From: Flavobacteriaceae bacterium
GTDB taxonomy: Bacteria; Bacteroidota; Bacteroidia; Flavobacteriales; Flavobacteriaceae
NCBI GenBank assembly: GCA_021648265.1
Contig: JAKITD010000005.1
Location: forward strand, 740-64,739
Direction: 5' to 3'
DNA: 64,000 nucleotides
Part shown: positions 36,305-51,300 of the stretch, piece after piece
Layout of the letters: each line of letters opens with the position of its first letter
Position numbering within the stretch: the stretch's first letter is position 1
Translations under genes and position numbers: made by a program
The notes under the pieces: model-generated
Seen by the model: only the letters and a program-made list of their open reading frames with translations
What the model was told of the DNA's origin: nothing
Database searches by the model: none

Positions 36305-39184
36305 ATGTCAGACAAAAAACGCCTTTTCCTTGTTGATGCCTACGCTTTAATTTTTCGAGGCTATTATGCATTTATTAAAAACCCTCGAATTAACTCAAAA
36401 GGACTCGATACCTCCGCCATTATGGGTTTTATGAATTCACTTTTGGATGTTATAAAACGAGAACGCCCCGATCATTTGGCGGTTTGTTTTGATAAAGGCG
36501 GCAGCGTTGCCAGAAAAGAAGCCTTCCCAGAATACAAAGCAAATCGAGATGTAACTCCCGATGCTATAAGAATTGCGATACCTTATATATATGAAATTCT
36601 GAAAGCCATGCACATTCCAATTATGGTCAAAGAAGGCTTTGAAGCAGATGATGTGATTGGAACGCTTTCCAAAAAAGCTGAAAAACAAGGCTATCAAACC
36701 TTTATGGTAACACCAGATAAGGATTTTGCGCAGTTGGTTTCGGAAAACATTTTTATGTACCGACCTATGTTTGGCGGTGGTTATGAAACTTGGGGAATCC
36801 CAGAGGTGCAAAAGAAATTTGAAGTAGAAGATCCGTTACAAGTGATAGATTACCTCGGAATGATGGGTGATGCCAGCGACAATATTCCTGGACTTCCAGG
36901 TGTAGGAGATAAAACTGCCAAAAAATTTATTAAAGCCTATGGAAGTATGGAAGGCCTTTTAGAAAACACTCACGAGCTTAAAGGAAAGATGAAAGAAAAG
37001 GTGGAAGCTGCCAAAGAGTTGGGCATTCTTTCTAAACAATTAGCGACGATAATGTTGGATGTTCCAGTTGAATTTCACGAAGAAGATTTTGAAATGTCGC
37101 AACCCGATTTAGAAAAAGTAACACAACTTTTTGAAGAATTAGAATTTCGTAGAATGATTGTTAATTTTAGGAATACTTTTTCTTTGGAATTAAAAACTAA
37201 TTCAAAAGATACATCAAATAAATCTGAACAAGATAAAGGAACAAAGAAGAATGTCACTTCTCCCGAATTACTCGGGACGCTCAGTGACCAGAAAACTTCC
37301 GCCGGTCAAGGTCAATTCTCCCTATTCGGAGGCGATAATGAGCCTTCCGAAAACACTCCTTACAGTTCTAGAAAAACGATTGAAAACACCGAACATTTCT
37401 ATCAATCTGTTCAAGCAGGAATGGGAACCAAATTGTTTCTTCAGAATTTATTGAAACAGAAATCAGTATGTTTTGATACGGAAACCACAGGATTGAATCC
37501 TATTACAGCCGAGTTAGTAGGAATTGCATTTTCTTGGGAAGTAGGTAAAGGATTTTATCTGCCTTTTCCAATAGATAAAACTGAAGTACAAGAACTTATC
37601 GAGCTAATTCGTCCATTTTTTGAAGGGGAGAGCATTCAGAAAATTGGTCAGAATTTAAAATACGATATCAAGGTTTTAAAGAAATACGGAATCTCGGTAA
37701 AAGGAAAACTGTTCGATACGATGTTGGCACATTACCTCATAAATCCTGATATGCGTCATAATATGGACGTACTTGCCGAAACTTATTTGAATTATACGCC
37801 TGTTTCCATCACCGAACTCATTGGAAAAAAAGGAAAAAATCAACTTTCAATGCGAGAAATTCCTTTGGATAAAATTACCGAATATGCGGTGGAAGATACA
37901 GATATTACGCTTCAGTTAAAAGAACATTTTGAGAAAGAACTTTCCGAAGCAGATACACAAAAATTATTTGATGATATTGAAATTCCGTTGCTTCGTGTTT
38001 TAGCATCTATGGAATTGGAGGGAATTAACCTCGATGTTCCATTTTTAGAAAGTCTAACTTCAGATTTAGATAAGGACATTGCTCATCTGGTTTCAAAAAT
38101 ATTTGAAGCTGCAGGAGAGGAATTCAATATTGCTTCACCTAAACAATTAGGAGTGGTGCTTTTTGAAAAAATGAAGTTGGTGGAAAAGCCTAAAAAGACA
38201 AAAACGGGTCAGTATTCTACTGCCGAAGATGTACTTTCTTATTTAGCAAAAGACCACGAAATCATCAACGATATTTTAGAATATCGAGGACTTGCTAAAT
38301 TGAAAAGCACTTATATAGATACACTTCCGAAGCAAGTAGAACCTACAACAGGGAGAGTTCATACCGATTATATGCAGACGGTTGCTGCCACAGGAAGACT
38401 GAGTAGTAACAATCCGAATTTACAAAATATTCCTATTCGTACTGAGCGTGGTCGTCAAGTGAGAAAGGCTTTTGTTCCTAGAAACAAAGACTATATTTTA
38501 CTAGCAGCAGATTATTCACAAATAGAATTGCGTATTATCGCAGCTTTAAGCGAAGAAGAGAATATGATTAATGCTTTTAAAAACGGGGAAGATATTCACG
38601 CTTCAACTGCTGCAAAAGTTTTTAATGTTCCCTTGGATGAAGTAACCAAAGAGCAACGTAGCAATGCGAAAACGGTGAACTTCGGAATTATTTACGGGGT
38701 TTCAGCATTCGGATTAAGTAATCAAACAGATTTATCTCGTTCTGAAGCAAAAGAACTGATAGAAACCTATTATGAAAGCTACCCAAAACTAAAAGATTTT
38801 ATAAACAAACAAATTAATTTTGCTCGTGAACACGGCTATGTACAAACCGTTTTAGGAAGACGGCGTTACTTAAACTCAATTAATGCGTCTAATGCAATAG
38901 TGCGAGGAGCAGCTGAAAGAAATGCAGTAAATGCACCGATTCAGGGTTCGGCAGCAGATATTATTAAAATTGCGATGATTAATCTGTATCAGAAACTTGA
39001 AGAAGGAAATTATAAAAGTAAGATGTTGCTTCAGGTACACGATGAATTGGTTTTTGATATTTACAAACCCGAATTGGAAGAACTAAAACCCATTATTAAA
39101 TCTGAAATGGAAAATGCTTTCAAACTTTCTGTGAATTTAGATGTCGAATTGGGATTGGGCGATAATTGGTTGGAAGCACATTAA
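36305..39184 (+). CDS. polA: DNA polymerase I
   Basis: 5'-3' exonuclease (DAYALIFR, EADD), 3'-5' exonuclease (FDTET), polymerase motifs (DYSQIELR, AKTVNFGIIYG, QVHDE). Confidence 0.98.
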   Translation: MSDKKRLFLVDAYALIFRGYYAFIKNPRINSKGLDTSAIMGFMNSLLDVIKRERPDHLAVCFDKGGSVARKEAFPEYKANRDVTPDAIRIAIPYIYEILKAMHIPIMVKEGFEADDVIGTLSKKAEKQGYQTFMVTPDKDFAQLVSENIFMYRPMFGGGYETWGIPEVQKKFEVEDPLQVIDYLGMMGDASDNIPGLPGVGDKTAKKFIKAYGSMEGLLENTHELKGKMKEKVEAAKELGILSKQLATIMLDVPVEFHEEDFEMSQPDLEKVTQLFEELEFRRMIVNFRNTFSLELKTNSKDTSNKSEQDKGTKKNVTSPELLGTLSDQKTSAGQGQFSLFGGDNEPSENTPYSSRKTIENTEHFYQSVQAGMGTKLFLQNLLKQKSVCFDTETTGLNPITAELVGIAFSWEVGKGFYLPFPIDKTEVQELIELIRPFFEGESIQKIGQNLKYDIKVLKKYGISVKGKLFDTMLAHYLINPDMRHNMDVLAETYLNYTPVSITELIGKKGKNQLSMREIPLDKITEYAVEDTDITLQLKEHFEKELSEADTQKLFDDIEIPLLRVLASMELEGINLDVPFLESLTSDLDKDIAHLVSKIFEAAGEEFNIASPKQLGVVLFEKMKLVEKPKKTKTGQYSTAEDVLSYLAKDHEIINDILEYRGLAKLKSTYIDTLPKQVEPTTGRVHTDYMQTVAATGRLSSNNPNLQNIPIRTERGRQVRKAFVPRNKDYILLAADYSQIELRIIAALSEEENMINAFKNGEDIHASTAAKVFNVPLDEVTKEQRSNAKTVNFGIIYGVSAFGLSNQTDLSRSEAKELIETYYESYPKLKDFINKQINFAREHGYVQTVLGRRRYLNSINASNAIVRGAAERNAVNAPIQGSAADIIKIAMINLYQKLEEGNYKSKMLLQVHDELVFDIYKPELEELKPIIKSEMENAFKLSVNLDVELGLGDNWLEAH
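37253..37288. repeat. Nested palindrome inserted in-frame in the polA linker
   Basis: gtcact-tc-tcccga-attac-tcggga-cgctc-agtgac; near copy at 55483-55504. Confidence 0.7.
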
Positions 39185-39225
39185 GCATTAATTTTTTCTG
39201 TACATTTGTTAAAAATAAAAAAACT

Positions 39226-39804
39226 ATGAAAAAAATTATCTTATTAGTTGCTTTAACCGCAACCATTGCCTTACAATCTCAAACAACATTCGACTTAGAT
39301 TGGGCTATCGGGATTAACGGAGAAGCGGCAAGTTTAACTATTGAACCTGGAGATACCGTTCGTTGGACTTGGACAGATGCCATGCCTCATAATGTAGTTA
39401 ATAAACCCGGAAGTCAAGAAATTTTTGATAGCGGTACTCTTATTGGAATTGGCGAACAATATTCTTTTACTTTTACCGAAGTTGGTATTAATGATTATGA
39501 ATGCACATTTCATACAGGAAGCATGTTTGGAACCATTACTGTAGAAGAAGAATTATCTATTGAAGATAAATTTTTAAAAAATATTATATTCTATCCAAAC
39601 CCTGTTAAAAACATATTTACACTATCTTCTTTGTTTGAGTTAGATAGCTTTAAGATATATAACACATTAGGAAGTTTAGTTTACGAAAAAACAGGAAACA
39701 ATCGTGTTATTGAGTATGATATGTCACACTTACAATCTGGCGTTTATATTCTTGTGGTAGCATCTAACAGCTTAAAAAAGACATTTAAGATTGTAAAAAA
39801 TTAA
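39226..39804 (+). CDS. Secreted plastocyanin-like cupredoxin with T9SS C-terminal domain
   Basis: Type-1 Cu ligands PHNV ... YECTFH...M; YPNPV..KTFKIVKN; start MKKII at 39226; TACATTTG box at 39201. Confidence 0.85.
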   Translation: MKKIILLVALTATIALQSQTTFDLDWAIGINGEAASLTIEPGDTVRWTWTDAMPHNVVNKPGSQEIFDSGTLIGIGEQYSFTFTEVGINDYECTFHTGSMFGTITVEEELSIEDKFLKNIIFYPNPVKNIFTLSSLFELDSFKIYNTLGSLVYEKTGNNRVIEYDMSHLQSGVYILVVASNSLKKTFKIVKN

Positions 39805-39860: not shown

Positions 39861-40077
39861 TAATTTTCGGTAAACTTAAATATTGAATTGGGATTGGCGA
39901 AAATTGGTTAAAGGCGCATTAAAACCACTTATAACAAGAATCCATTATAACTTAGGGATAAAGTTCTCATAACTGTTATATAATTGACAGGGTTTATATT
40001 TATTTTTGAAAAAAAAGTCCCATTGAGCATCAAAATGCCTTCAGCCTTTTTTGTTGGTCAAGTAAGAAAGAACTTAA

Positions 40078-40989
40078 ATGAAACTTTTAAAACCTTTATT
40101 GTATTTCTCTCTATTTCAGTATCCACTTACTGAAGAGGAAATTTATACTTTTTCTGAAACCACTTCCAAAGAGCAAATAAACGCATCCTTAGAAAAATTG
40201 GTTAGAGAAAAAGTGATTTTTAAAATTGATGAATTCTATCTTTTTGAAGATGATAAGTCCTTGGTAAAAAGAAGACTTTCTGGAAACCAAATGGCAAAAG
40301 ATATACAAGATAAAGCTGATAAGGTTTCAAAATTTATTTCAAAATTTCCTTATGTGGAAGGAGTTGGAATTTCAGGTTCGCTATCAAAAGGATATTATGA
40401 TGATGATGATGGCGATATCGATTTCTTCATTATTACTTCACCCAAAAGATTGTGGATTGCCAGAACATTTCTCATTCTTTATAAAAAAATATTCTTACTG
40501 AATTCCAAAAAATATTTCTGTGTCAATTACTTTATCAGTACCAATTCATTAGAAATTGAAGAAAAAAATCGTTTCACAGCAACTGAACTTACAACAATGT
40601 TACCAATGTATGGCAACGGAAGTTTTCATGACTTTTACGAACAGAATAAATGGGTAAATTCCTTCTTGCCAAATAAAACTATTGCTGAAGGATTATCAAA
40701 ACTGAATCCTGTTGAAAAACCAATTCTATCTAAAGCTATTGAAGGTGTTTTAGATACTAAATTAGGTGATTGGCTGGATTCATTATTCTTGAAAATCACT
40801 TATAAAAAATGGAAAATAAAGTTTAATAAATTAGAAGACAAACATTTTAATGTAGCTTTAAAATCTACCCAGAATGTTTCCAAACATCATCCTTTAAATT
40901 TTCAAAAAAAAGTAATCGAACGCCTTAACGGGAAGTATGACGAGTTACAAGAAAAACACAATATATATTTAGAAAAAGAGCATGCTTGA
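40078..40989 (+). CDS. Pol-beta-superfamily nucleotidyltransferase-domain protein with N-terminal helical/wHTH-like region
   Basis: GISGSLS...GDIDFFII (GS/DxD motif), FCVNY, C-terminal KHHP. Confidence 0.75.
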   Translation: MKLLKPLLYFSLFQYPLTEEEIYTFSETTSKEQINASLEKLVREKVIFKIDEFYLFEDDKSLVKRRLSGNQMAKDIQDKADKVSKFISKFPYVEGVGISGSLSKGYYDDDDGDIDFFIITSPKRLWIARTFLILYKKIFLLNSKKYFCVNYFISTNSLEIEEKNRFTATELTTMLPMYGNGSFHDFYEQNKWVNSFLPNKTIAEGLSKLNPVEKPILSKAIEGVLDTKLGDWLDSLFLKITYKKWKIKFNKLEDKHFNVALKSTQNVSKHHPLNFQKKVIERLNGKYDELQEKHNIYLEKEHA

Positions 40990-42442
40990 TATTCTTTTTT
41001 CGCATTCGTATTATTACCCATTAGATAAAAAACAATGGGAAAACAAAACGCCTTATCCGCCATTGGGAACCATTTATGCAGCTTCATTAATGCGTAAAAA
41101 CGGATATTCGGTATCCTTATTTGACACCAATTTACGAAGTAGTTCTTTCGAAATTGAAATTGAAATACAAGAACAAAAACCTTCCTTTTTGGTCATTTAT
41201 GATGATGGCTTTAACTACCTCACCAAAATGTGTTTAACAAATATGCGGGAGGCTGCTTTTGAAATGATTTCCATCGGAAAAAAATACAATTGTACGGTCA
41301 TTGTAAATAGCTCAGACAGTACCGATCATTATCAAAAATACTTAGATTCTGGCGCTGATTTTATCATTCTCGGAGAAGGAGAATTGACTTTAAAAGAATT
41401 GGTTTTTAAAATAAAAAACAACGAATCTACAACAGATTTAAAGGGAATTGTTTATAAAAATAATACTGAATTTATCACCACTCCAAAACGAGAAGTTTTA
41501 AGAGATCTGGACGAATTACCAATGCCTGCTTGGGATTTGGTCGATGTTGACGCTTATAAAAAAGTTTGGGCAGAACGCAATAAAAAATTCACGTTGAATA
41601 TGGCAACAACACGAGGTTGTCCATATAAATGTAATTGGTGCGCCAAGCCAATTTATGGGGTTCGGTATAACTCGCATTCACCAGCATATATCACCAAACA
41701 CATTTCCTATTTAAAAGAAAATTATGGCGTTACCAACTTTTGGATGTGTGATGATATTTTTGGGTTGAAACCAAATTGGGTTCAGAATTTTAATTTAGAA
41801 TTGAAAAAAGCTGACTTAACGATTGAGTATATAATTCAAAGTCGGGTAGATTTATTATTAAAAGAAGATACTATTGATGCCTTGGCAGAAAGCGGATTAA
41901 AAGAAGTTTGGGTAGGTGCCGAAAGTGGATCGCAAAAGATTTTGGATGCGATGGATAAAGGAACACAGCTTTCACAAATCTATGATGCCACTCGATTATT
42001 AAAACAAAAAAACATACAAGTTGCCTTTTTTATTCAGTTTGGTTATTTGGGTGAAACCAAAGAAGATATTGCCAAAACTATTTCAATGATAAAAGAACTG
42101 CAACCCGATAATATTGGCATTTCGGTTTCGTATCCTTTACCAGGAACCAAGTTTTACGAAATGGTAAAAGATGATTTTAAAGGAAAAGTAAATTGGACAG
42201 ATTCCGATGATTTGGCGATGATGTTTCAAGGGACATTCAATTCAGAATATTATAAAAAACTACATCGCTATGTCCATAAAGAATATAGAAAGAGTCAAGC
42301 AATAGCTAATTATAAACAGTTTTTTAAGAATCCGTTGTCAATTTCAGGAAGTAAATTACGATTGATGCTTTTGTATTTTTATTATATGCCTAGTTCGATG
42401 ATGGATCGAGTGATTTTGAATAAAATGGAACATAAAACTTAA
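40982..42442 (+). CDS. B12-binding radical SAM enzyme (1)
   Basis: PYPPLGTIYAA cobalamin-binding N-terminus, RGCPYKCNWC, DD.F, GAESGSQ.ILD.M.KG. Confidence 0.92.
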   Translation: MLDILFSHSYYYPLDKKQWENKTPYPPLGTIYAASLMRKNGYSVSLFDTNLRSSSFEIEIEIQEQKPSFLVIYDDGFNYLTKMCLTNMREAAFEMISIGKKYNCTVIVNSSDSTDHYQKYLDSGADFIILGEGELTLKELVFKIKNNESTTDLKGIVYKNNTEFITTPKREVLRDLDELPMPAWDLVDVDAYKKVWAERNKKFTLNMATTRGCPYKCNWCAKPIYGVRYNSHSPAYITKHISYLKENYGVTNFWMCDDIFGLKPNWVQNFNLELKKADLTIEYIIQSRVDLLLKEDTIDALAESGLKEVWVGAESGSQKILDAMDKGTQLSQIYDATRLLKQKNIQVAFFIQFGYLGETKEDIAKTISMIKELQPDNIGISVSYPLPGTKFYEMVKDDFKGKVNWTDSDDLAMMFQGTFNSEYYKKLHRYVHKEYRKSQAIANYKQFFKNPLSISGSKLRLMLLYFYYMPSSMMDRVILNKMEHKT

Positions 42443-42898
42443 CCACAAAGAACACCAAGAAGGCACAAAGAGCACAGAGAATTATGACTGAAAATGAAAT
42501 AGCAAAAAAGGTAATTGGATTAGCAATAGAGGTACATAAAGCACTTGGTCTTGGGTTGTTAGAAAGTGCTTATCAAGAATGCCTATTTTACAAAATTAAA
42601 AAAGAAGGTTTAATAGTAATAAAAGAAAAACCAATGCCTTTGGTTTTTGAAGAAGTGAAACTTGATTGTGGTTATAGAATTGACCTGTTAATAGAAAACA
42701 AGTTAGTCATAGAATTAAAAAGTGTTGAAACTTTAAATGATATTCATATGGCTCAAACTCTTACTTATATGAAATTAGGTAATTATAAGCTTGGATTGCT
42801 AATAAATTTTAATGTAACACTTTTAAAACACGGTATAAAACGAATCATAAATGGCTCTTTGTGAGCTTTGTGAAAAACTCTGTGCCGTTTGTGGTTAA
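42439..42898 (+). mobile_element. GxxExxY nuclease cassette with TTAA ends, 11-bp terminal inverted repeats and inverted CACA(A/G)AG arrays
   Basis: ttaaccacaaa (42439-42449) / tttgtggttaa (42888-42898); four repeat units per side; sits exactly between a stop and a start codon. Confidence 0.65.
42484..42864 (+). CDS. GxxExxY protein (PD-(D/E)XK nuclease fold)
   Basis: GLLESAY, RIDL..VIELKS, AQTLTY, GLLINF. Confidence 0.92.
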   Translation: MTENEIAKKVIGLAIEVHKALGLGLLESAYQECLFYKIKKEGLIVIKEKPMPLVFEEVKLDCGYRIDLLIENKLVIELKSVETLNDIHMAQTLTYMKLGNYKLGLLINFNVTLLKHGIKRIINGSL

Positions 42899-42903
42899 AT
42901 AAT

Positions 42904-43686
42904 ATGTCTGAAAATTTCGATAAACACGCAAATAACTACGATGCTGTTTTTACCTATTCAGAAATAGGAAAAGCACAACGCAGTCGTGTCTATCATTTTC
43001 TAAATAAACACTTACTTTCAGAAAAAAACCTTTCAATTTTAGAGCTTAATTGCGGGACGGGAGAAGATGCTAATTATCTTTCTAAGCTAGGACATACAGT
43101 TTTAGCTACCGATATTTCTTCTGAAATGATAAACGTTGCTAGAGCAAAACACCAACATAAAAACTTGAAGTTTCAAGAATTGGATATTACTAAAATTACT
43201 TCAGAAACTTTTACTGAAAAATTCGATTTGATATTCTCCAACTTTGGAGGTTTTAACTGTTTATCTAAAAATGAGATTGCTAACTTTTTTTCTGTTTCTG
43301 AAAACTTATTAAATCCTTTAGGGAAAATAGCATTGGTAATTATGCCAAAACATTGTTTGTTGGAACAGTTTTACTTTTCCATAAAAGGAGATTTCAAAAA
43401 AGCAAAAAGACGTAACACCAACGAATTTGTGTATGCAAATGTAGAAGGCGTGCAAGTGCCGACTTGGTATTATAATCCGGAAGAATTGGTATCTTTAGCT
43501 TCTAATAATTACAAAACAATAGTAACAAAACCTATTGGGATTGCGATTCCTCCTTCTTATTTGGAGCCTTTTTTTAGAAATAAAAAGTGGTGGTTAAATT
43601 TATTAATTTGGAAAGAAAAATGGTTGTCAAATAGTTTTTGGGCTAAATATGCGGATCATTTTTTGATTATCTTTCAGAAAACATGA
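42904..43686 (+). CDS. Class I SAM-dependent methyltransferase (1)
   Basis: LELNCGTGED, TDIS, FDLIFSNFGGFN; start MSENF at 42904. Confidence 0.88.
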   Translation: MSENFDKHANNYDAVFTYSEIGKAQRSRVYHFLNKHLLSEKNLSILELNCGTGEDANYLSKLGHTVLATDISSEMINVARAKHQHKNLKFQELDITKITSETFTEKFDLIFSNFGGFNCLSKNEIANFFSVSENLLNPLGKIALVIMPKHCLLEQFYFSIKGDFKKAKRRNTNEFVYANVEGVQVPTWYYNPEELVSLASNNYKTIVTKPIGIAIPPSYLEPFFRNKKWWLNLLIWKEKWLSNSFWAKYADHFLIIFQKT

Positions 43687-43787
43687 GTATCCTGCAAGGT
43701 CTTGAATACCTTGTAGGTATAATAAAATATAAAATAATAAAACCTGTAAGGTTTCTAAAACCTATTTCAAAATAAATAAATGAGTAT
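43683..43787. repeat. REP doublet bounded by an 8-bp direct repeat (atgagtat)
   Basis: atgagtat at 43683-43690 and 43780-43787; cctgcaaggt-cttgaat-accttgtagg at 43691-43717; degraded copy at 43741-43763. Confidence 0.75.
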
Positions 43788-45156
43788 AATTTTAACCCAC
43801 GCATATTATTTACACGAAGATCCGTTAGAGGCAAAAATAATGAAGCCTTATGCTCCGCTGGGATTATTATACATTTCGGGATATTTAAACGAGCAAAAAA
43901 TAGTGAACCATTTGTTTGATGCTACTTTTTCAAACCAAGAAAAACAATTGGATTTTATTGCTTCAAAAAAACCAAAAGCAGTTGCTATTTACACCAATTT
44001 GATGACCAAAATAAACGTCATTAAGTTGATTAAAATATTAATTTCTGAAAAAAAATATGGCTTTCCAAAAGTAATTATTGGAGGTCCAGATATTACTTTT
44101 AACCTTGAAAATTATCTAAAAACGGGGGTTCATTATTTAGTGATTGGTGAAGGAGAACAAACAATGACCGAGCTATATAATGCAATTGTTGATACTACTG
44201 AAATATCGGAAGTTTCAGGAATTGCCTATTTAAAAAATGGCGAGGTTGTAAAAACTGCTCCTCGCAAAAAAATAAAAGATTTAAGTACGTTACCTTTACC
44301 TAATCGTGAAGGAATTGCCATCAAAAAATATTTGGAAACCTGGAAAACGCATCACGGAAAAAGTTCGATGACCATTAGTACACAGCGAGGTTGTCCTTAT
44401 ACTTGCAAATGGTGTAGCACGGCAGTTTATGGGCAAAGTTATCGCAGAAGACCTGCAAAATTGGTGGTTGAAGAAATGGCGATGCTTCAAAAAAAATACA
44501 ACCCAGATAGTATTTGGTTTGTGGACGATGTTTTTACGGTGAGCCATAAATGGATTCGGGAATTTCACGAAGAAACACAGCTTCAGAAAGTAAAAATTCC
44601 GTTTGAGTGTATCACGAGAGCCGAACGATTAAATGACGAAATTCTTCAGCTTTTAAAAGAGGCAGGATGTTTTAGAATTTGGATTGGTGCAGAAAGTGGT
44701 TCGCAAAAAATCATCGATAAAATGGATAGACGTGTTGATGTAAATGTGGTAAAAGATGCTATAATTAAAACCAATGCTTTAGGAATTGAAACAGGAACTT
44801 TCATTATGTTAGGCTATCCTGGAGAAGATGAAAATGATATTAACGAAACGATTTCCTATTTAAAAAAGGCAAATCCTACTTATTATACTATTACGATTGC
44901 TTACCCGATTAAAGGAACTTCCTTATATTCGGAAATTGAAAAAGATATTATCGTACAACCTAATTGGGAAACCTCTACCGATCGAGAAATAGATTTTAAG
45001 AGGACTTATTCGAGAAAATATTATGATTATGCGGTACGAAGAGTGGTAAATGAGGTGGAAGCTTATAAATCAAGTTCGATTCCTGAAAAAATAAAACTTA
45101 AAACTAAAAGTATTGTATTCTTCTTATTTATGAAATTTTTTAAAATTGTTTTCTAA
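43780..45156 (+). CDS. B12-binding radical SAM enzyme (2), paralog of 40982
   Basis: PYAPLGLLYIS, GGP, RGCPYTCKWC, FVDDVF, GAESGSQ. Confidence 0.92.
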   Translation: MSIILTHAYYLHEDPLEAKIMKPYAPLGLLYISGYLNEQKIVNHLFDATFSNQEKQLDFIASKKPKAVAIYTNLMTKINVIKLIKILISEKKYGFPKVIIGGPDITFNLENYLKTGVHYLVIGEGEQTMTELYNAIVDTTEISEVSGIAYLKNGEVVKTAPRKKIKDLSTLPLPNREGIAIKKYLETWKTHHGKSSMTISTQRGCPYTCKWCSTAVYGQSYRRRPAKLVVEEMAMLQKKYNPDSIWFVDDVFTVSHKWIREFHEETQLQKVKIPFECITRAERLNDEILQLLKEAGCFRIWIGAESGSQKIIDKMDRRVDVNVVKDAIIKTNALGIETGTFIMLGYPGEDENDINETISYLKKANPTYYTITIAYPIKGTSLYSEIEKDIIVQPNWETSTDREIDFKRTYSRKYYDYAVRRVVNEVEAYKSSSIPEKIKLKTKSIVFFLFMKFFKIVF

Positions 45157-45157
45157 A

Positions 45158-45904
45158 ATGAAACAAAAACCAAACAACATAAATGGAGTTTTGTACTTAA
45201 CAGAAAAGAGAACCTTTTTTTCTGCTAACTATATTTCGGTAAGAGAAAAAGAAGGTAGAATCTTGAGTGACCAAGAAGTTTATAATCTTCCAAACCCTTT
45301 AAAGAGCAATAAAAACTTTAAGGAATGGCAACTCCGAAAAAAGTCAAGTAATCGTTTTGTTTCGTATTTAAAAAACAAAGATAAACCTTTAAATATATTG
45401 GACATTGGTAGCGGAAATGGATGGTTTTCTAACGCCTTAGCTATTATTGAAAAAACAACAGTAGACGCTATAGATATTAATACAGAAGAATTAGAACAAG
45501 CGGCACGGGTTTTTAATAAAGAAAACTTATCTTTTATTTATGTTGATATTTTTGAGTCTTTACCTGCTTTCAAAAACAAATATGACATCATTACATTAAA
45601 TGCAAGTATTCAATATTTCGACAACTTAGAAAAGCTTCTAAAAACTTTAAAATCCTTTTTAAAACCAAATGGAGAAATTCATATATTAGACAGTCCTTTT
45701 TATCAGGATTCGGAAATTGAGGCAGCTAAAAAAAGAACAAAAGATTATTATAAAAAACTAGGTGCTTCGGGTATGGACACCTATTATTTTCATCACTCAG
45801 ATTCTATATTAAAAAAATCAACGATATTATATTCCCCTAAAAGAGGTGTTTTTAAGAAATTATTTTTTTTGAAAGACATTCCGTTTTATTGGGTGAAATT
45901 TTGA
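45158..45904 (+). CDS. Class I SAM-dependent methyltransferase (2)
   Basis: LDIGSGNGW, AIDIN, YDIITLNASIQY; start MKQKP at 45158. Confidence 0.88.
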   Translation: MKQKPNNINGVLYLTEKRTFFSANYISVREKEGRILSDQEVYNLPNPLKSNKNFKEWQLRKKSSNRFVSYLKNKDKPLNILDIGSGNGWFSNALAIIEKTTVDAIDINTEELEQAARVFNKENLSFIYVDIFESLPAFKNKYDIITLNASIQYFDNLEKLLKTLKSFLKPNGEIHILDSPFYQDSEIEAAKKRTKDYYKKLGASGMDTYYFHHSDSILKKSTILYSPKRGVFKKLFFLKDIPFYWVKF

Positions 45905-45917
45905 TTAAAAATAGCCT

Positions 45918-47603
45918 ATGATAAAACTTGCTTTATCCATATTACCTTCTGTAAAAAAAAGAAAATTATTTTCTTTTTTTTACAAGACTATATTTTTAAA
46001 TATTCTAGATTTAATTTCAGTAGCATACCTTATTCCTGCTATAATTCTTCTTTTGGATAAAGAAAAGCTATATGCTATCATCAATAAAATTGGGATTGAT
46101 TCAAGCTATATAAAGGACGAAAACATCAAACTATTTATAGCTTTACTTTTACTATTTTATATTCTAAAAAACTTAATACAGGTTAAATTCAATAAAAACT
46201 TGTTTGACTTTTTATACCAGTTATCAAGTGATATGTCAGAAAAAATAATTCAAAATTTTCTCTCGAAAGATTATCTTTCTTATCAAAAAAAAGAAAAAGG
46301 AAAAATGATAAATATCGTGCTAATGGCAACTAATGATTTTTGTTGTAAATATTTACACGCCTACGTACTTTTATTTTCCGAAGTTTTTATTTTAACTATA
46401 ATCTCTTGTGTTCTTTTTTATTTCTATCCTTTTCTTACTCTTGGCTCTTTGTTGGTGTTAATTTGTTTTAGTGGCTTTATTTATTACAAAAAAAAGTCTG
46501 ACTTTAAACTCATAGATTCTACATTTAAAACCGCTCAATCTTCTACAAACTCAAAATTAATTAATATTTTGGAAGGTTATTTAGAGATAAAAAGTTCACA
46601 AAACGAAAATCATTTTATCGATACTTTTAATACAGATAATAAAAAATTAAATAGGGTTACTTCAAAATTAGTAAGCACTAATTTTAACTATTCAAAATAC
46701 TTAGAATTAACACTAATTATATGCTTGGGTGTTGTCATCTACTTTAATTTGAAATTTCCCCAAAACAATGTATTATTAATTGCAACTCTTGGGGCTTTAG
46801 GCTTTAGGCTTATTCCTTCATTAAGTAAAATATTAACTGCAACTACTAATATAAAAACCCATTCCTATACGATAAAATTACTTCATGACATTCTCAATGA
46901 AACAATACAGAAAAAAACAAATACGATAACACGTTTTTCCTCTGAAATAATAATAGATAAGGTCTCTTTTGAATATCAAAAAAACAATATAATTGTAGAG
47001 GATATTGAATTCTCAATAAAACGAGGTGATTTTTTTGGGATTTCTGGGGTTTCAGGAATTGGAAAGACAACGCTTTTACACCTTATTATAGGATTAATAA
47101 AACCTACTAAAGGACAGATTATTATTGACAATAAACAAATGAAAAACACCAGTTTTCTTTCCTTTATAAAATATGTTCCTCAACAACCCTATCTTTTAAA
47201 TTGTACTTTATTAGAAAACTTAACCATGTATAGTACAGACAAAAATATTGACTATGAGTATTTAAATTATTTATGTAATCGGCTTGATTTAAGCTCTATG
47301 ATTGAAGGACTAAAAGATAATTACAATACCGTAATACAACATGATAGCCTTCGGTTTTCTGGAGGACAGAAACAACGTATTTCTTTAGTTAGAGCATTAT
47401 ATGGAAAACCTGATTTGTTGATTTTAGACGAAGCGACCAATCAACAAAACAAACAATTAGAAATTCAAATTTTCGACTTTTTAAAAGAGCTATCTTCTAA
47501 AAACAAAATGGCTGTTATTGCCGTTTCTCATAACGAATCATTGTCTTCATATTATGATAAATCTTATATTTTAAAAAATAAAAAACTACTATTTATTGTC
47601 TAA
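45918..47603 (+). CDS. ABC exporter (fused TMD-NBD), PglK/MsbA-like
   Basis: N-terminal TM helices, GVSGIGKT, FSGGQKQR, LILDEAT. Confidence 0.88.
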   Translation: MIKLALSILPSVKKRKLFSFFYKTIFLNILDLISVAYLIPAIILLLDKEKLYAIINKIGIDSSYIKDENIKLFIALLLLFYILKNLIQVKFNKNLFDFLYQLSSDMSEKIIQNFLSKDYLSYQKKEKGKMINIVLMATNDFCCKYLHAYVLLFSEVFILTIISCVLFYFYPFLTLGSLLVLICFSGFIYYKKKSDFKLIDSTFKTAQSSTNSKLINILEGYLEIKSSQNENHFIDTFNTDNKKLNRVTSKLVSTNFNYSKYLELTLIICLGVVIYFNLKFPQNNVLLIATLGALGFRLIPSLSKILTATTNIKTHSYTIKLLHDILNETIQKKTNTITRFSSEIIIDKVSFEYQKNNIIVEDIEFSIKRGDFFGISGVSGIGKTTLLHLIIGLIKPTKGQIIIDNKQMKNTSFLSFIKYVPQQPYLLNCTLLENLTMYSTDKNIDYEYLNYLCNRLDLSSMIEGLKDNYNTVIQHDSLRFSGGQKQRISLVRALYGKPDLLILDEATNQQNKQLEIQIFDFLKELSSKNKMAVIAVSHNESLSSYYDKSYILKNKKLLFIV

Positions 47604-48651
47604 AAAAAGTCTCATATTCATCCTCCCAGCTTTTCCTTCTCCAGATGAGTCGGATAGTTTTATGGTCCCTTTTATTCAACAATTTATTGTTGGTTTTAAA
47701 GATAATTATCCAAATACTACCCTAATTATATACACTTTATACAGTCCAGAAAGCAATCCCTATTTATGGAGGAATATCCAAGTTATTCCATTAAATTTTA
47801 AAAAAGGAAAATCTTTCTTAAAGCTGTTTTATTTAACAAATTCAATCCTAAAAATTTCAAAAAAAATAAAAAAAAACAATGTTGTTGGGATTTTAAGTTT
47901 TTGGCACACAGAAACAGCAATGATTGGAAACATTGTTGGTTTTTTAAAATCCATAAAACAGTATACTTGGCTTCAAGGGCAGGATGTAAAAAGGTCAAAT
48001 AAATATATGCTCTTTTTCCCTCCTAATCCAAACAAGTTAATTGCTCTTTCTAATTTTCAGAATGAGTATTTATATAAAGAATTTGGGTTTTACGCTTCGA
48101 AAGTAAATACTATTAGCGTAAACAGTTCTTTTTTTCCTGAACTAAACACTTCTTCAAGAACCATCGATATTATAGGTATTGGTTCATTTATTCCGCTCAA
48201 AAATTTTCAGTTATTTTTGAATGTTATTTTAAAACTTAAAAAAAAGAATCCTAAAATTCGAGTTGTAATAGTAGGCAATGGTCCTTTAGAAAGTAAATTA
48301 AAAACTTTTTGCATTTCAAATAAATTAGAAAAAAATGTAACTTTTACTGGATTAATATCACATAAACAGTCTTTAGATTATATAAATAATTCTAAAATAT
48401 TACTACATACTTCTAATTTTGAAGGAGGAGGGGCAGTTGTTCATGAGGCTTTGTATTTAGGATGTCAAGTTATTGGTAGAATTCCTATAATAGAACAACG
48501 CAATGCCTCATTTTATTGTTGTAATTCTTTAGATGAGATCACTCATAAAGCTACTGAATTACTTCAAAACCCTAAACCTATAAAATCGTTTGTAGCTTAT
48601 GACATGAAGCAATCTACAAAAACTATTTACAACCTGTTTTCAGAATTTTAA
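47596..48651 (+). CDS. Glycosyltransferase family 4 (GT-B)
   Basis: IVGNGPL, FTGLISH, SNFEGGG..VHEALYLG. Confidence 0.8.
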   Translation: MSKKSLIFILPAFPSPDESDSFMVPFIQQFIVGFKDNYPNTTLIIYTLYSPESNPYLWRNIQVIPLNFKKGKSFLKLFYLTNSILKISKKIKKNNVVGILSFWHTETAMIGNIVGFLKSIKQYTWLQGQDVKRSNKYMLFFPPNPNKLIALSNFQNEYLYKEFGFYASKVNTISVNSSFFPELNTSSRTIDIIGIGSFIPLKNFQLFLNVILKLKKKNPKIRVVIVGNGPLESKLKTFCISNKLEKNVTFTGLISHKQSLDYINNSKILLHTSNFEGGGAVVHEALYLGCQVIGRIPIIEQRNASFYCCNSLDEITHKATELLQNPKPIKSFVAYDMKQSTKTIYNLFSEF

Positions 48652-49666
48652 TACTTTTATATTTCTTCTGTAACACTAATTTTAAAATAGCGTTTGAAGT
48701 TTTCCATGGCAGAATACGAGGTAATTCAATTAGTCTTACTAAAATATTTTTCTTAAAAGTTAATTGTATTCCCTTTTTTTTATAGTACTCTTTATATTTA
48801 GAAATATATTCCAAAAACAATTTTCGAACATTTTCTAATTTCACAATGCTAGTGCGATCAATATATAATAAGAAAAAAGCAGTTACTAAAACATCTAAAT
48901 GATGATAAACAATAATTTCAGAAAGCGCTAAGGAAGCTTTATTTTGCTCAACAATATCCATCTCGTATTCAAAAATTATATGATGATCTATAATTCTTTT
49001 AGGTTCCACAATTCTTCTAGAAACTGAATCACTTCTAGCGTATATTTTTAATAACGATTTTTCGACAAAGGAAACTTTATTTGATTTTAATAAATAACTC
49101 AGTAAATAAGGTCGATCTTCAAACCATAAACCTTCTGGAAACATTATGGATTTAGCAAGGGCTGCTTTATACAATTTTGCCCAAACTGTAGATGCTATAT
49201 TATGAGTGTACATTCCAATACACGCTTCTGTTTTTAAAATATCTCCTGTAGCATTATATTTAAACCCTTGCGAAGAAATGAACTGGTTATTTGCATCAAT
49301 CAAATCAAATTTACAAATAACAATGTCCGATTTTGCAAGCATCATAGCATCTAACATTGTTTCAACCATTTCAGGAAGTAACACATCATCTGCGTCTAAA
49401 AAAGTAAGGTATCTTCCTTTTGCTACACTTAAACCCTTATTTCTTGCAGCTCCAATATTTTCACTTAAAGAATGTACACATAAAATATTGGAATATTGTT
49501 TTTCAAATTTCTCTGAAATTTCTTTTGATGAATCTGTAGATCCATCATTTACTAAAATAATTTCAATTAAATCATAACTTTGGTCTAGAACAGAATTAAT
49601 AGCTCTTGACAAATATTTTTCTTCATTAAAAAACGGAATAATAATACTAACTAATATTGAATCCAT
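48623..49666 (-). CDS. Glycosyltransferase family 2
   Basis: VSIIIPFFN, VNDGSTD, ARNKGL, FLDADD, WAKLY, FED. Confidence 0.9.
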   Translation of the reverse strand: MDSILVSIIIPFFNEEKYLSRAINSVLDQSYDLIEIILVNDGSTDSSKEISEKFEKQYSNILCVHSLSENIGAARNKGLSVAKGRYLTFLDADDVLLPEMVETMLDAMMLAKSDIVICKFDLIDANNQFISSQGFKYNATGDILKTEACIGMYTHNIASTVWAKLYKAALAKSIMFPEGLWFEDRPYLLSYLLKSNKVSFVEKSLLKIYARSDSVSRRIVEPKRIIDHHIIFEYEMDIVEQNKASLALSEIIVYHHLDVLVTAFFLLYIDRTSIVKLENVRKLFLEYISKYKEYYKKKGIQLTFKKNILVRLIELPRILPWKTSNAILKLVLQKKYKSIKILKTGCK

Positions 49667-49669
49667 CCT

Positions 49670-50413
49670 TTATAGTTTTAAAAGTTTATTAACCAATTCT
49701 TGCTGAGTTTTAAGTATTTTATCTATATCTTTTGGTGCATTCCATTGTAAAGAATACAAACTATCAGCTCCAATTAAGATAGAAACTGATGGGACTTTAT
49801 AGAATTGTGAAAAAGCATACAACCCTGCGGTTTCCATTTCTACCAAAGCACATTTTTTTGAAGAGTAATTTTCTATTAATTGTTTTGTTTCTCTAAACGG
49901 ACAATCTGTACTCCAAGATGTTTTGGATTTTAACCCACAATGATCTTTTACTTTTTCGAACCAAATTTTATCGTAACTTATAATATTCTCTTCTTTTGAA
50001 TAAAAAAAAGAGCTTCCTGCAGAAGAATAAACATTAGAAATTATATATGCATTATTTTCCACGATTAAATGATCAAGGATTCCAGCAACTCCAATAAAAA
50101 CAAACTGTTTAACTCCTAATTCCTTTAATTCTTCCAATAATGTAATCATTCCAGACGAACCCATTCCAAATTCGGAACTCAACAAAAACTTGGATTTAAA
50201 ATTATAATGTAAACCGTTAATTCCTTTTATTTTTTTTGTGAAAGAAGAAACTTTTTTTGAGAAAACACTTTTATTTATAGATATAATTGCAATAGGAGGA
50301 AGTGCTTCAAAATTATATATATTTCGTTCTCTTTTCCATGAAACAATATCTGAAATTTTTAAAACTGATTTTTCGCTATAAAAAGAAGTGTTGTTATTTT
50401 TAAAAAATGACAT
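49670..50413 (-). CDS. Nucleoside phosphorylase family protein (PNP/UDP_1 fold)
   Basis: GMGSS..LEEL.ELG, FIGVAG, STDCPFRET, VEMETAG. Confidence 0.8.
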   Translation of the reverse strand: MSFFKNNNTSFYSEKSVLKISDIVSWKRERNIYNFEALPPIAIISINKSVFSKKVSSFTKKIKGINGLHYNFKSKFLLSSEFGMGSSGMITLLEELKELGVKQFVFIGVAGILDHLIVENNAYIISNVYSSAGSSFFYSKEENIISYDKIWFEKVKDHCGLKSKTSWSTDCPFRETKQLIENYSSKKCALVEMETAGLYAFSQFYKVPSVSILIGADSLYSLQWNAPKDIDKILKTQQELVNKLLKL

Positions 50414-50733: not shown

Positions 50734-50759
50734 AAACCTGCCTGCCGGCAGGCAGGTTT
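50734..50759. repeat. Perfect 26-bp palindrome
   Basis: aaacctgcctgcc|ggcaggcaggttt. Confidence 0.9.
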
Positions 50760-50760
50760 G

Positions 50761-51300
50761 TCAAAATTCCCGAAAAGCTAAATCCATTGAGTATATCTGA
50801 TTATCGATAATGATATTAAAATCGTTAAGAGCATCACCAAATTCTGTAATCCTTTGTGACCAAACAAAGAAAATTTCGGAACCTGGAATGTATTTCCAAC
50901 GCAGTACTAAGTTAGATCGATATTGAACAAAAGCAAAATTAGGATCTCCAAACGAATAATCGGTAGTGCCATCTTGATTCTCGTCTACGCTATACAAACC
51001 ATCTTCAAAATTAATTTGATTGTCATTATACCATGTAACCCGATTGTTTAAATCTTCGGCAGTTGCATCATTTACATAATTAAAGTTGGAATATTTCCCT
51101 CTTGCAATAAAGGCTGACCGTAATACTGTAGTGTTAAATTAGGACTAAACATAATTAACTCGAAGTGTTGCCCTTAAAGTCTCTTGATCTATTCCACTTA
51201 AAACATATCGCGTTGTGCCAGCAAAATCTTGTTGTGTTACGTATTGTGTTTTGTTTGGATTGCTTTCATATTCCGTAGAAATCGATAGACTAAAAAAGGA
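50761..51300 (-). pseudogene. Frameshifted C-terminal remnant of a DUF5916-like outer-membrane protein
   Basis: Minus-strand fragments in different frames: QYVTQQDFAGTTRYVLSGIDQETLRATLRVNY / SPNLTLQYYGQP / FIARGKYSNF...QYRSNLVLRWKYIPGSEIFFVWSQ; no 5' part. Confidence 0.7.

Follow-up and report, generated by a model that had tools for sequence, protein, structure and literature searches.

The cassette and its genes

The window analysed here is a stretch of 64,000 nucleotides from contig JAKITD010000005.1 (positions 740 to 64,739) of the Flavobacteriaceae bacterium assembly GCA_021648265.1, which is 2.83 Mb in size and 92% complete. It is Flavobacteriaceae DNA with a GC content of ~32% (0.325), and carries a type IX secretion system (T9SS) sorting domain and a GxxExxY gene. 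Between polA with the adjoining T9SS cupredoxin gene (36305-39804) and the genes rplM-rpsI-rpsB-tsf (51580 onward) lies a cassette encoding a nucleotidyltransferase (NT), two radical S-adenosylmethionine (SAM) enzymes of the cobalamin (B12) type (rSAM1 and rSAM2), two methyltransferases (MT1 and MT2), an ABC transporter, two glycosyltransferases (GT4 and GT2) and a protein of the nucleoside phosphorylase type (PNP). This gene content, as given in an initial annotation of the sequence, was reproduced by open reading frame (ORF) calls and by Pfam and NCBIfam scans, which added one further ORF of the GxxExxY type; by the same calls and scans, all cassette genes are intact and the ORFs of the pathway have the same length as their orthologues. 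We compared the locus with about 108 others (80 obtained via the NT alignment, 2 via rSAM2 homologues and 26 as regions from more distant genomes), the ORFs of which were clustered by script; counts of modules are from the 62 loci with enough flanking sequence. The cassette consists of a conserved cytoplasmic head joined to one of several interchangeable modules for glycan assembly and export. The host genome has no second copy of it and none of the genes of the GT-C-type module found in other genomes, so the locus is self-contained.

NT (40078-40989, + strand) is the founding gene of the cassette. Its match to the Pol-beta family NTP_transf_2 is just at the cut-off (21.3 bits) and holds across the family, in which NTP_transf_2 (PF01909) matches 33/33 aligned members and Polbeta (PF18765) 31/33; NCBIfam gave no match. 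In the AlphaFold2 model (pLDDT 87), a winged helix at the N-terminus is followed by a long helix, a nucleotidyltransferase (NTase) core of beta-alpha-beta type and a C-terminal helical domain, and the residues S99-G100 and D113-x-D115 of the hG[GS] ... DxD motif are invariant across 33 NT sequences. Given this threshold-level match that persists throughout the family, the confident model and the invariant GS and DxD residues, NT is probably an active Pol-beta NTase of a new family. A Foldseek search of the PDB gave no match at E<=1e-3; the best hits, all of them weak, were MNT antitoxins, ANT(4'), AadA and ANT(9), as well as HalB of the Hailong system, and the best full-length ones among them were the aminoglycoside nucleotidyltransferases (ANTs), namely ANT(4'), AadA and ANT(9). 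A LicD or Tam41-type identity was considered and dropped, as Pfam gave no match and Tam41 appeared only at Foldseek rank 47 (TM 0.25). A sugar-1-phosphate nucleotidylyltransferase was likewise rejected for want of an NTP_transferase (PF00483-type) match in Pfam or NCBIfam. Since NT is Pol-beta- and ANT-like rather than an enzyme of the latter type, the "activating" role assigned to it in the initial annotation can only be inferred.

rSAM1 (40982-42442, + strand) and rSAM2 (43780-45156, + strand) combine a Radical_SAM domain (PF04055; 69.8 and 83.4 bits, respectively) with a predicted B12-binding domain (PF02310), which scores above the cut-off of 32.1 bits in rSAM2 (43.1 bits) and below it in rSAM1 (27.2 bits); cobalamin binding is thus a prediction. 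The host genome codes for other B12-binding enzymes, indicating that cobalamin is in use. Both proteins contain the CxxxCxxC motif (CPYKCNWC at residue 213 in rSAM1, CPYTCKWC at residue 205 in rSAM2) and have no auxiliary clusters, as each contains only 5-6 cysteines in total. Neither scores above any NCBIfam cut-off. The BchE model (TIGR02026) is the best for rSAM1 with 151 bits and gives 153.8 bits for rSAM2 (cut-off 481.35); the PhpK-family model (TIGR04479, PhpK/Fom3-type) gives 123-149 bits (cut-off 600), the HpnJ model (TIGR03471) 124-138 bits (cut-off 577.6), TIGR04014 96-113 bits (cut-off 360) and the RiPP (ribosomally synthesized and post-translationally modified peptide) enzyme ApyD up to 137 bits, for rSAM2 (cut-off 750). 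RiPP C-methyltransferase models reach 86-93 bits with rSAM2, and the AprD4 model 69-87 bits, also sub-threshold. With BchE, PhpK, HpnJ and ApyD all far below their cut-offs, the two enzymes stand outside the characterised families. By sequence, the closest solved structure for both is MgmA (9CCB; 62-66 bits, 62 for rSAM1), with AprD4 second for both and CysS, TokK and OxsB following. These matches are at the superfamily level only and do not identify the rSAMs.

In public records these rSAMs are labelled BchE ([quoted passage not shown]) or "YgiQ". The BchE label is a propagated misannotation, as the BchE model scores ~150 bits against a cut-off of 481; no photosynthesis genes were seen at the locus in Pfam and NCBIfam scans. 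Although rSAM1 and rSAM2 had been described as two paralogs, they are only ~30% identical, and a maximum-likelihood tree resolves three orthogroups, rSAM1 (support 99/97), rSAM2 (100/100) and c45 (100/99), each of which spans several families. Judging from this tree, rSAM1 and rSAM2 are separate ancient orthogroups and not recent paralogues.

MT1 (42889-43686, + strand) and MT2 (45146-45904, + strand) are class I SAM-dependent methyltransferases by their Pfam matches, which for MT1 are Methyltransf_25/31/11; the best NCBIfam score of MT1 is to CpaM (57 bits vs a cut-off of 180). MT1 is present in 59/62 loci. MT2 is optional (8/62); other loci have a fusion of an MT2-like with an MT1-like domain, the N-terminal half of which shares 54% identity with MT2. 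In the initial annotation each rSAM was followed by its own methyltransferase. This gene order is specific to the host genome, given that rSAM2 is mostly followed by genes other than MT2 elsewhere and that some genomes have the two methyltransferases as one fused protein. A separate rSAM(c45)-methyltransferase(c55) pair recurs among the compared loci.

Except for the ABC protein, with six hydrophobic segments, and GT2, with one, all cassette proteins, including all head enzymes, are predicted to be soluble. ABC (45918-47603, + strand; Pfam ABC_tran and ABC_membrane) is by its architecture a half-transporter of the MsbA/PglK exporter type with six transmembrane segments and a nucleotide-binding domain, and its equivalog scores are 172 bits for PglK (cut-off 1000) and 156 bits for MsbA (cut-off 602). 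GT4 (47596-48651, + strand) is a GT-B enzyme (Glycos_transf_1, 72.2 bits). GT2 (48623-49666, - strand) is a GT-A enzyme (Glycos_transf_2, 127.5 bits; PRK10073, 139 bits vs a cut-off of 423), with its hydrophobic segment at residues 251-269. The convergent GT4 and GT2 genes overlap by 29 nt at their 3' ends (48623-48651).

The PNP gene (49670-50413, - strand) encodes a PNP_UDP_1 protein (PF01048; 54.4 bits vs a cut-off of 25.1), a putative nucleoside phosphorylase or nucleosidase of the NP-I family. No NCBIfam equivalog cut-off is reached, and the best PDB match is the 5'-methylthioadenosine phosphorylase of Sulfolobus (29 bits); a separate canonical DeoD is encoded in the host genome. The 301 Flavobacteriaceae genomes contain five strong PNP homologues, each at a distance of 4.5-5.3 kb from NT, whereas the 278 genomes that are NT-negative contain none (Fisher p=2e-6; since the compared loci are phylogenetically related, this and other co-occurrence p-values are a guide only). 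Across the phylum, a PNP profile search that included DeoD and MtnN rows gave usable full-length high-scoring matches in genomes G482 and G612, in both cases on the contig carrying NT. GT2 adjoins PNP in 11/11 loci that have PNP. In alignments with reference sequences at only 14-16% identity, which can serve as a lead only, M193-E194 and D217 of PNP correspond to the ribose-binding Met-Glu and the catalytic Asp of DeoD and MtnN, and the position of the phosphate-binding Arg of DeoD (R87) is occupied by I, V or L. PNP is a divergent member of its family and specific to the cassette. To our knowledge, wherever well-known NP-I enzymes occur alongside radical SAM chemistry, their substrates are adenosines substituted at the 5' position; these enzymes are the 5'-methylthioadenosine, S-adenosylhomocysteine and 5'-deoxyadenosine nucleosidases, HpnG and MqnB. 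On these grounds PNP would remove the base either from the by-product 5'-deoxyadenosine or from a nucleotide handle.

Conserved head and interchangeable modules

NT is directly followed by an rSAM1 orthologue on the same strand in 90 of 96 loci, and in 64 of these the two genes have the identical 8-nt overlap, an arrangement far beyond chance that makes rSAM1 the obligate partner of NT. The order NT-rSAM1-MT1-rSAM2 is found in most of the 80 Flavobacteriaceae loci, and two rSAMs are present in 48/62 loci. The rSAM1 orthogroup is kept across Bacteroidota, Ignavibacteriota and Kryptoniota, and rSAM2 homologues are 70-87% identical across many genera of Flavobacteriaceae. The expectation that the genes co-occur in other genomes was borne out widely, across the sampled Flavobacteriaceae and the phylum, albeit not in the form of the five-gene core first envisaged: the conserved nucleus is NT with rSAM1, joined by MT1 and, in Flavobacteriaceae, by rSAM2.

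Gene fusions point in the same direction. NT and rSAM1 are fused in at least four proteins, of 814, 816, 801 and 703 aa (HWP82027.1 is a natural fusion of this kind), which are only 46-73% identical to each other and therefore do not stem from a single assembly error. In four genomes NT follows a GT4 domain within one protein of 656-704 aa, and one of these GT4-NT fusions adjoins an ABC exporter gene with no rSAM nearby. The GT4 domains of these fusions match PF20706 ("GT4-conflict") with 30-42 bits, whereas the match to the general Glycos_transf_1 is stronger. Together, the two kinds of fusion suggest that GT4, NT and rSAM1 share a substrate or act on successive intermediates, and that these are related to carbohydrate.

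NT homologues were found in 23 of 301 sampled Flavobacteriaceae genomes (~8% of genomes; 22/300 genera) and in 50/401 genomes sampled from the Genome Taxonomy Database phylum (40/179 genera, ~22% of genera). A species-level genome collection holds 491 NT relatives, and a protein collection 4,015 homologues at E<=1e-3. Exact-sequence look-up identified Ignavibacterium album JCM 16511 (IALB_2767), Flavisolibacter ginsenosidimutans and a metagenome-assembled genome (MAG) of Chitinophagaceae as carriers, along with MAGs of Ignavibacteria and Candidatus Kryptoniota. In the NCBI taxonomy the carriers belong to three phyla of the Fibrobacterota-Chlorobiota-Bacteroidota (FCB) group, within which our comparison was made. 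One contig of 7.1 kb (L053, JBLHIE010000079.1), binned as Arenicella sp. (Gammaproteobacteria), carries a Flavobacteriaceae-like NT-rSAM-MT1 head whose NT is 53% identical; it is probably a binning error rather than a case of cross-phylum transfer.

The genes 3' of the head differ even among close relatives. One type of module, present at the window locus, consists of ABC and GT4 with or without GT2 and PNP, and ABC accompanies GT4 in 14 of the 18 loci with GT4. The other type comprises GT-C enzymes of the GT87 or PMT_2-like kind, a 248-aa GT2, Wzx-fold flippases and a secreted CxxCH protein (U375), along with sulfotransferases, NKWYS, polysaccharide deacetylase and GNAT genes. FkbM is also among the module genes, and one genome has a complete heptose pathway with GT9. 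A recognised glycosyltransferase lies within 10 kb in 55/62 loci. U375 is a protein of 375 aa encoded after rSAM2 in 32/62 loci (e.g. L058:15995-17122), accompanied by GT-C enzymes in 28 of the 32; it has no Pfam or NCBIfam match and is missing from the host genome. The nearest loci, with NT 77-79% identical, occupy the same polA...rplM site and are laid out differently, NT-rSAM1-MT1 being followed in one by a convergent Polysacc_synt-like gene, GT2 and PNP, and the other, quite different, having a sulfotransferase, FkbM and a third rSAM.

The loci of the GT-C type also encode a polytopic membrane family of 380-390 aa (L068:18054-19196 and 14 other loci) that has no match in Pfam or NCBIfam. 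Although hhalign found no relation between this family (c26/57/69) and the Polysacc_synt-like proteins (c40), fold prediction later gave a MOP flippase fold (pLDDT 90), with TM 0.71 to WzxE and 0.72-0.75 to MurJ (E ~6e-6), and by its model the family appears to be an unannotated Wzx subfamily. ABC genes (17 loci) and Wzx-fold genes (20 loci) are mutually exclusive, with 0/62 loci having both (Fisher p=5e-4). This exclusivity is the best evidence that ABC does the job of a flippase and that the pathway runs via a lipid-linked intermediate. The accessory arm at the window locus (ABC-GT4-GT2-PNP, 45918-50413) has a GC content of 0.27, compared with 0.31 for the head and the window value given above, and its PNP is 62% identical to that of L030, where NT is 58% identical, and only 41% identical to that of L005, where NT is 79% identical. 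Such mosaic affinities and lower GC content suggest that modules are exchanged by recombination, as would be expected by analogy with loci of glycan diversity.

Coupling of the genes at the window locus is less uniform than first described. It is tight at three junctions, where genes overlap by 8 nt (NT/rSAM1), 11 nt (rSAM2/MT2) and 8 nt (ABC/GT4), and is broken at two, by an inserted ORF between rSAM1 and MT1 and by a gap of 93 nt between MT1 and rSAM2 (43687-43779), where the relatives L001 and L002 have a 4-nt overlap. The inserted ORF (42484-42864, + strand) encodes a GxxExxY / PD-(D/E)XK_3 protein (PF13366, 136.7 bits; TIGR04256, 139.5 bits). It sits exactly at the rSAM1/MT1 junction (42439-42898), where relatives have an 8-nt overlap and no counterpart was found in the related loci compared, and both flanking genes are intact. 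This ORF has been inserted into the operon, which it interrupts; it has no part in the pathway and looks like a small mobile cassette.

Upstream of NT, the cupredoxin gene is followed by a hairpin with a T-run and then by a candidate Bacteroidetes-type -7 promoter box, TATTTTTG (TAnnTTTG; 40001..40008, + strand), 70 nt 5' of the NT start. We give this box low weight because TAnnTTTG is frequent in AT-rich DNA, and a sigma-70 promoter scan was uninformative (64 found vs 60.9 expected). The cupredoxin itself (39166-39804), plastocyanin/azurin-like and provided with a T9SS C-terminal sorting domain, is encoded directly 3' of polA with a 19-nt overlap. On the other side of the cassette, the region between PNP and rplM (50734-51300) contains what is left of a decayed gene on the minus strand. 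This remnant includes a 78-aa ORF (50761-50997) with a frame-broken continuation upstream, and is followed by a strong GC-rich hairpin with a T-run (50759-50734).

Proposed function and alternatives

A head that recurs in many Bacteroidota and Ignavibacteria beside swappable genes for sugar transfer and lipid flipping makes an unusually modified envelope sugar unit the most likely product. The best explanation of the locus is that it is a self-contained copy of a widespread cell-envelope glycoconjugate cassette, and the surface glycan or glycolipid suggested in the initial annotation fits the neighbourhoods with their glycosyltransferase, flippase and sulfotransferase modules. We lean, with somewhat better than even confidence, toward a pathway in which the cytoplasmic head tailors a sugar-type unit that is built onto a lipid carrier and flipped outwards; in any single chemical step our confidence is much lower. 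In such a pathway, NT would nucleotidylylate a sugar-type substrate, either at a hydroxyl, as aminoglycoside ANTs do, or at a phospho-group to give a unit linked to a nucleoside diphosphate, so that the nucleotide could be a handle or a means of activation. rSAM1 and then rSAM2 would carry out radical chemistry at unactivated carbons, most likely C-methylation, and MT1 and MT2 would add O- or N-methyl groups. At the cytoplasmic face, GT4 and GT2 may then incorporate the unit so modified into a glycan or glycolipid carried by a membrane lipid, and the transporter of MsbA/PglK type would flip the product to the outer face. The cassette-specific PNP-like enzyme would cleave the base from an adenosine-type species, perhaps the rSAM by-product 5'-deoxyadenosine or the nucleotide handle itself.

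Several points weigh against this proposal. The structural relatives of NT are only weak (Foldseek E>=0.018; query-normalised TM<=0.25), and the B12 domain of rSAM1 falls under the Pfam cut-off. No initiating phosphoglycosyltransferase, polymerase or ligase was found at the window locus in Pfam and NCBIfam scans. Class-B rSAMs are known to catalyse non-methylating reactions too, and ABC exporters of the MsbA/PglK fold also export soluble compounds. In addition, the p-values overstate independence because of the relatedness of the loci.

A more elaborate version of the proposal, which we rate as unlikely, is a new logic of envelope-glycan assembly in the FCB group. There, NT would put a nucleotide handle on a sugar, possibly lipid-linked, onto which rSAM1, rSAM2 and c45 would dock in order to install C-methyl groups or rearranged carbons of a kind produced by no known pathway for surface glycans, and the nucleosidase of the ABC/GT2 variant would clip off the base and leave a substituent of the ribosyl-phosphate type; HpnG and MqnB, which process adenosylated intermediates, offer a likeness for such base clipping. 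About equally doubtful is that, within the same envelope context, the rSAMs do not methylate at all and instead rearrange, ring-contract or deoxygenate the sugar, as HpnJ, calditol synthase and AprD4 do. NT would then supply a nucleotidyl leaving group, much as phosphorylation by GenP precedes deoxygenation in gentamicin biosynthesis, and the methyltransferases would cap a carbocyclic or deoxy head group. Such chemistry is consistent with the presence of HpnJ, BchE and AprD4 among the best sub-threshold NCBIfam matches and of AprD4 as the second solved structure, with a deacetylase that adjoins a glycosyltransferase in some loci like the HpnI/HpnK pair, and with the weak B12 domain of rSAM1 (27 bits). 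BchE, too, has recently been reported to be a cobalamin rSAM that does not methylate. However, these matches are all far under the family cut-offs, the Pfam scan of the window revealed no AprD3-like reductase partner, methylation is the commonest class-B reaction, and one to four extra SAM methyltransferases are present at each locus.

Somewhat less probable again is an exported soluble metabolite (a pseudo-oligosaccharide, aminoglycoside-like or nucleoside-like), for which ABC would be an efflux pump and NT a tailoring or self-resistance enzyme. The weak full-length structural matches of NT to ANTs would suit such a product, GenK and GenD1 are B12 rSAMs of aminoglycoside pathways, and the variant in the window has soluble glycosyltransferases, a PNP-like gene and an ABC exporter without lipid-carrier enzymes. 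In most relatives, however, the head is accompanied by Wzx-fold flippases and sulfotransferases as well as by GT-C enzymes and a small GT2 that may be a polyprenyl-phosphate sugar synthase; this set acts on lipid-linked or periplasmic glycans, and its Wzx-fold proteins exclude ABC. In addition, the aminocyclitol, aminotransferase and dehydrogenase genes that characterise such pathways were not found in the Pfam scan, and the locus has conserved housekeeping synteny (polA ... rplM). The modified nucleoside metabolite proposed at first as an alternative is the weaker option.

The remaining explanations are more improbable still. That the head modifies a peptide or protein, to yield either a modified surface glycoprotein or a RiPP-like product, the N-terminal winged helix of NT being the recognition element, would accord with the scores of rSAM2 to ApyD (137 bits) and to RiPP C-methyltransferases (86-93 bits) and with the protein substrate of MgmA; we nevertheless regard it as quite improbable, since no small ORF (20-90 aa) of the precursor type is conserved beside the core across the 108 loci, no peptidase or cyclodehydratase was found, and the GT4-NT fusions and glycan modules indicate carbohydrate. 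A RiPP cluster was rejected for lack of such an ORF, and the initial statement that the locus is without a precursor peptide and NRPS/PKS (nonribosomal peptide synthetase/polyketide synthase) genes held up, the latter in the Pfam scan. Even less credible is a system for modifying RNA, or a conflict system directed against phages, in which a Pol-beta NTase is combined with rSAMs and methyltransferases. NTases of the Pol-beta type occur frequently in defence systems, the best Foldseek matches of NT include MNT and Hailong HalB, the fusion GT4 domains match PF20706 and the methyltransferases weakly match RNA methyltransferase families. Against this, PADLOC returned only generic matches to rSAM, methyltransferase and ABC-ATPase domains and none for NT, GT4, GT2 or PNP, so that we rejected a defence system; Glycos_transf_1 is the stronger match to the fusions, and the cassette has a stable chromosomal position and glycan neighbours.

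We consider the chance negligible that the locus is a known pathway with the same enzyme types, be it that of hopanoids (HpnG/HpnI/HpnJ), phosphonates (Fom1/Fom3/PhpK) or bacteriochlorophyll (BchE). HpnG, HpnI and HpnJ do belong to the same three families as PNP, GT2 and a B12 rSAM, the highest sub-threshold scores include those to PhpK and BchE, and BchE is the name found in public annotations, but all equivalog cut-offs are missed by a factor of at least 3. In 10 NT-positive genomes, the host included, no squalene-hopene cyclase (PF13243) scored above the cut-off, and matches to PEP (phosphoenolpyruvate) mutase (PF13714) were only partial (profile positions 3-109 of 240; 20-32 bits, at or below the cut-off), in ORFs of ~280 aa found in all ten. 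We thus rejected a hopanoid-type pathway for lack of the cyclase and a phosphonate pathway for lack of a real PEP mutase. The absence of PEP mutase noted initially for the locus extends in this sense to the genome, and that of terpene cyclases is borne out as far as squalene-hopene cyclase is concerned.

That the locus fits no named pathway, as stated in the initial annotation, agrees with the lack of any curated family match. Nor is the cassette described in the literature found by full-text searching, and a review from 2026 on radical SAM enzymes of the B12 type includes no such system and does not use the words polysaccharide, glycan or lipid in its text. What is new here includes several independent NT-rSAM1 fusions, the four genomes with GT4-NT fusions, the finding that the membrane family has a MOP fold and excludes ABC, the cassette-specific PNP, three rSAM orthogroups and the optional MT2. 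Few large classes of enzymes are as poorly characterised as the cobalamin-dependent radical SAM enzymes, and we know of no B12 rSAM shown to act in bacterial envelope-glycan assembly. Among the carriers of the cassette are many abundant marine Flavobacteriaceae, which have to obtain B12 by import. If the envelope-glycoconjugate proposal is true, a new surface structure of bacteria that are ecologically dominant would be defined by this cassette, and the composition of their envelope would be linked to the supply of B12. A new nucleotidyltransferase family and three rSAM orthogroups would then have an assigned function, and the widespread "BchE" misannotation would be corrected. Given that cultured, non-pathogenic carriers exist, among them Flavobacterium soli DSM 19725, Flavobacterium sp. 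CF136, Winogradskyella flava KCTC 52348 and Aureisphaera galaxeae NBRC 110018 besides Flavisolibacter ginsenosidimutans and Ignavibacterium album JCM 16511, the question is open to direct testing.

Comparison with known systems

Fosfomycin biosynthesis by Fom1 and Fom3 resembles the cassette, in which NT and rSAM1 are translationally coupled and in some proteins fused, in that a nucleotidyltransferase works directly with a cobalamin-type rSAM. In that pathway the substrate of a class-B rSAM C-methyltransferase carries a nucleotide as a handle, which is provided by the cytidylyltransferase domain of Fom1. NT differs from Fom1 in having the Pol-beta fold instead of the Fom1-type cytidylyltransferase fold, and the cassette differs in its context of glycan assembly without a PEP mutase. 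MgmA, the glutamine C-methyltransferase of methyl-coenzyme M reductase, has a compact class-B architecture of ~450 aa similar to that of the cassette rSAMs. However, it acts on a protein substrate in methanogens, and the context of the cassette is an entirely different one.

Aminoglycoside pathways likewise use B12-type or B12-like rSAMs (GenK, GenD1, Fms7, AprD4) on unactivated sugar carbons, and enzymes of the resistance type, such as GenP and ANTs, to activate the hydroxyls of sugars, and it is with such ANTs that NT has its best, though weak, full-length structural matches. In contrast to such pathways, the cassette has no aminocyclitol genes and is tied to GT-C with Wzx-fold proteins or to ABC, and the similarity is at the superfamily level only. 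Hopanoid tailoring by HpnG (PNP family), HpnI (GT2), HpnK and HpnJ (B12 rSAM), together with archaeal calditol synthase, provides another example in which the same families are grouped and a lipid-linked sugar head group is modified. Here, too, there are differences: HpnH is missing from the cassette, hopanoid tailoring includes nothing equivalent to NT or the methyltransferases, and squalene-hopene cyclase was not found in the NT-positive genomes. Finally, although none of the PglK and Wzx flippase systems or of the ArnC/ArnT and Gtr-type pairs of GT2 and GT-C enzymes includes a Pol-beta NTase or a cobalamin-type rSAM, the downstream modules of the cassette are of just this kind.

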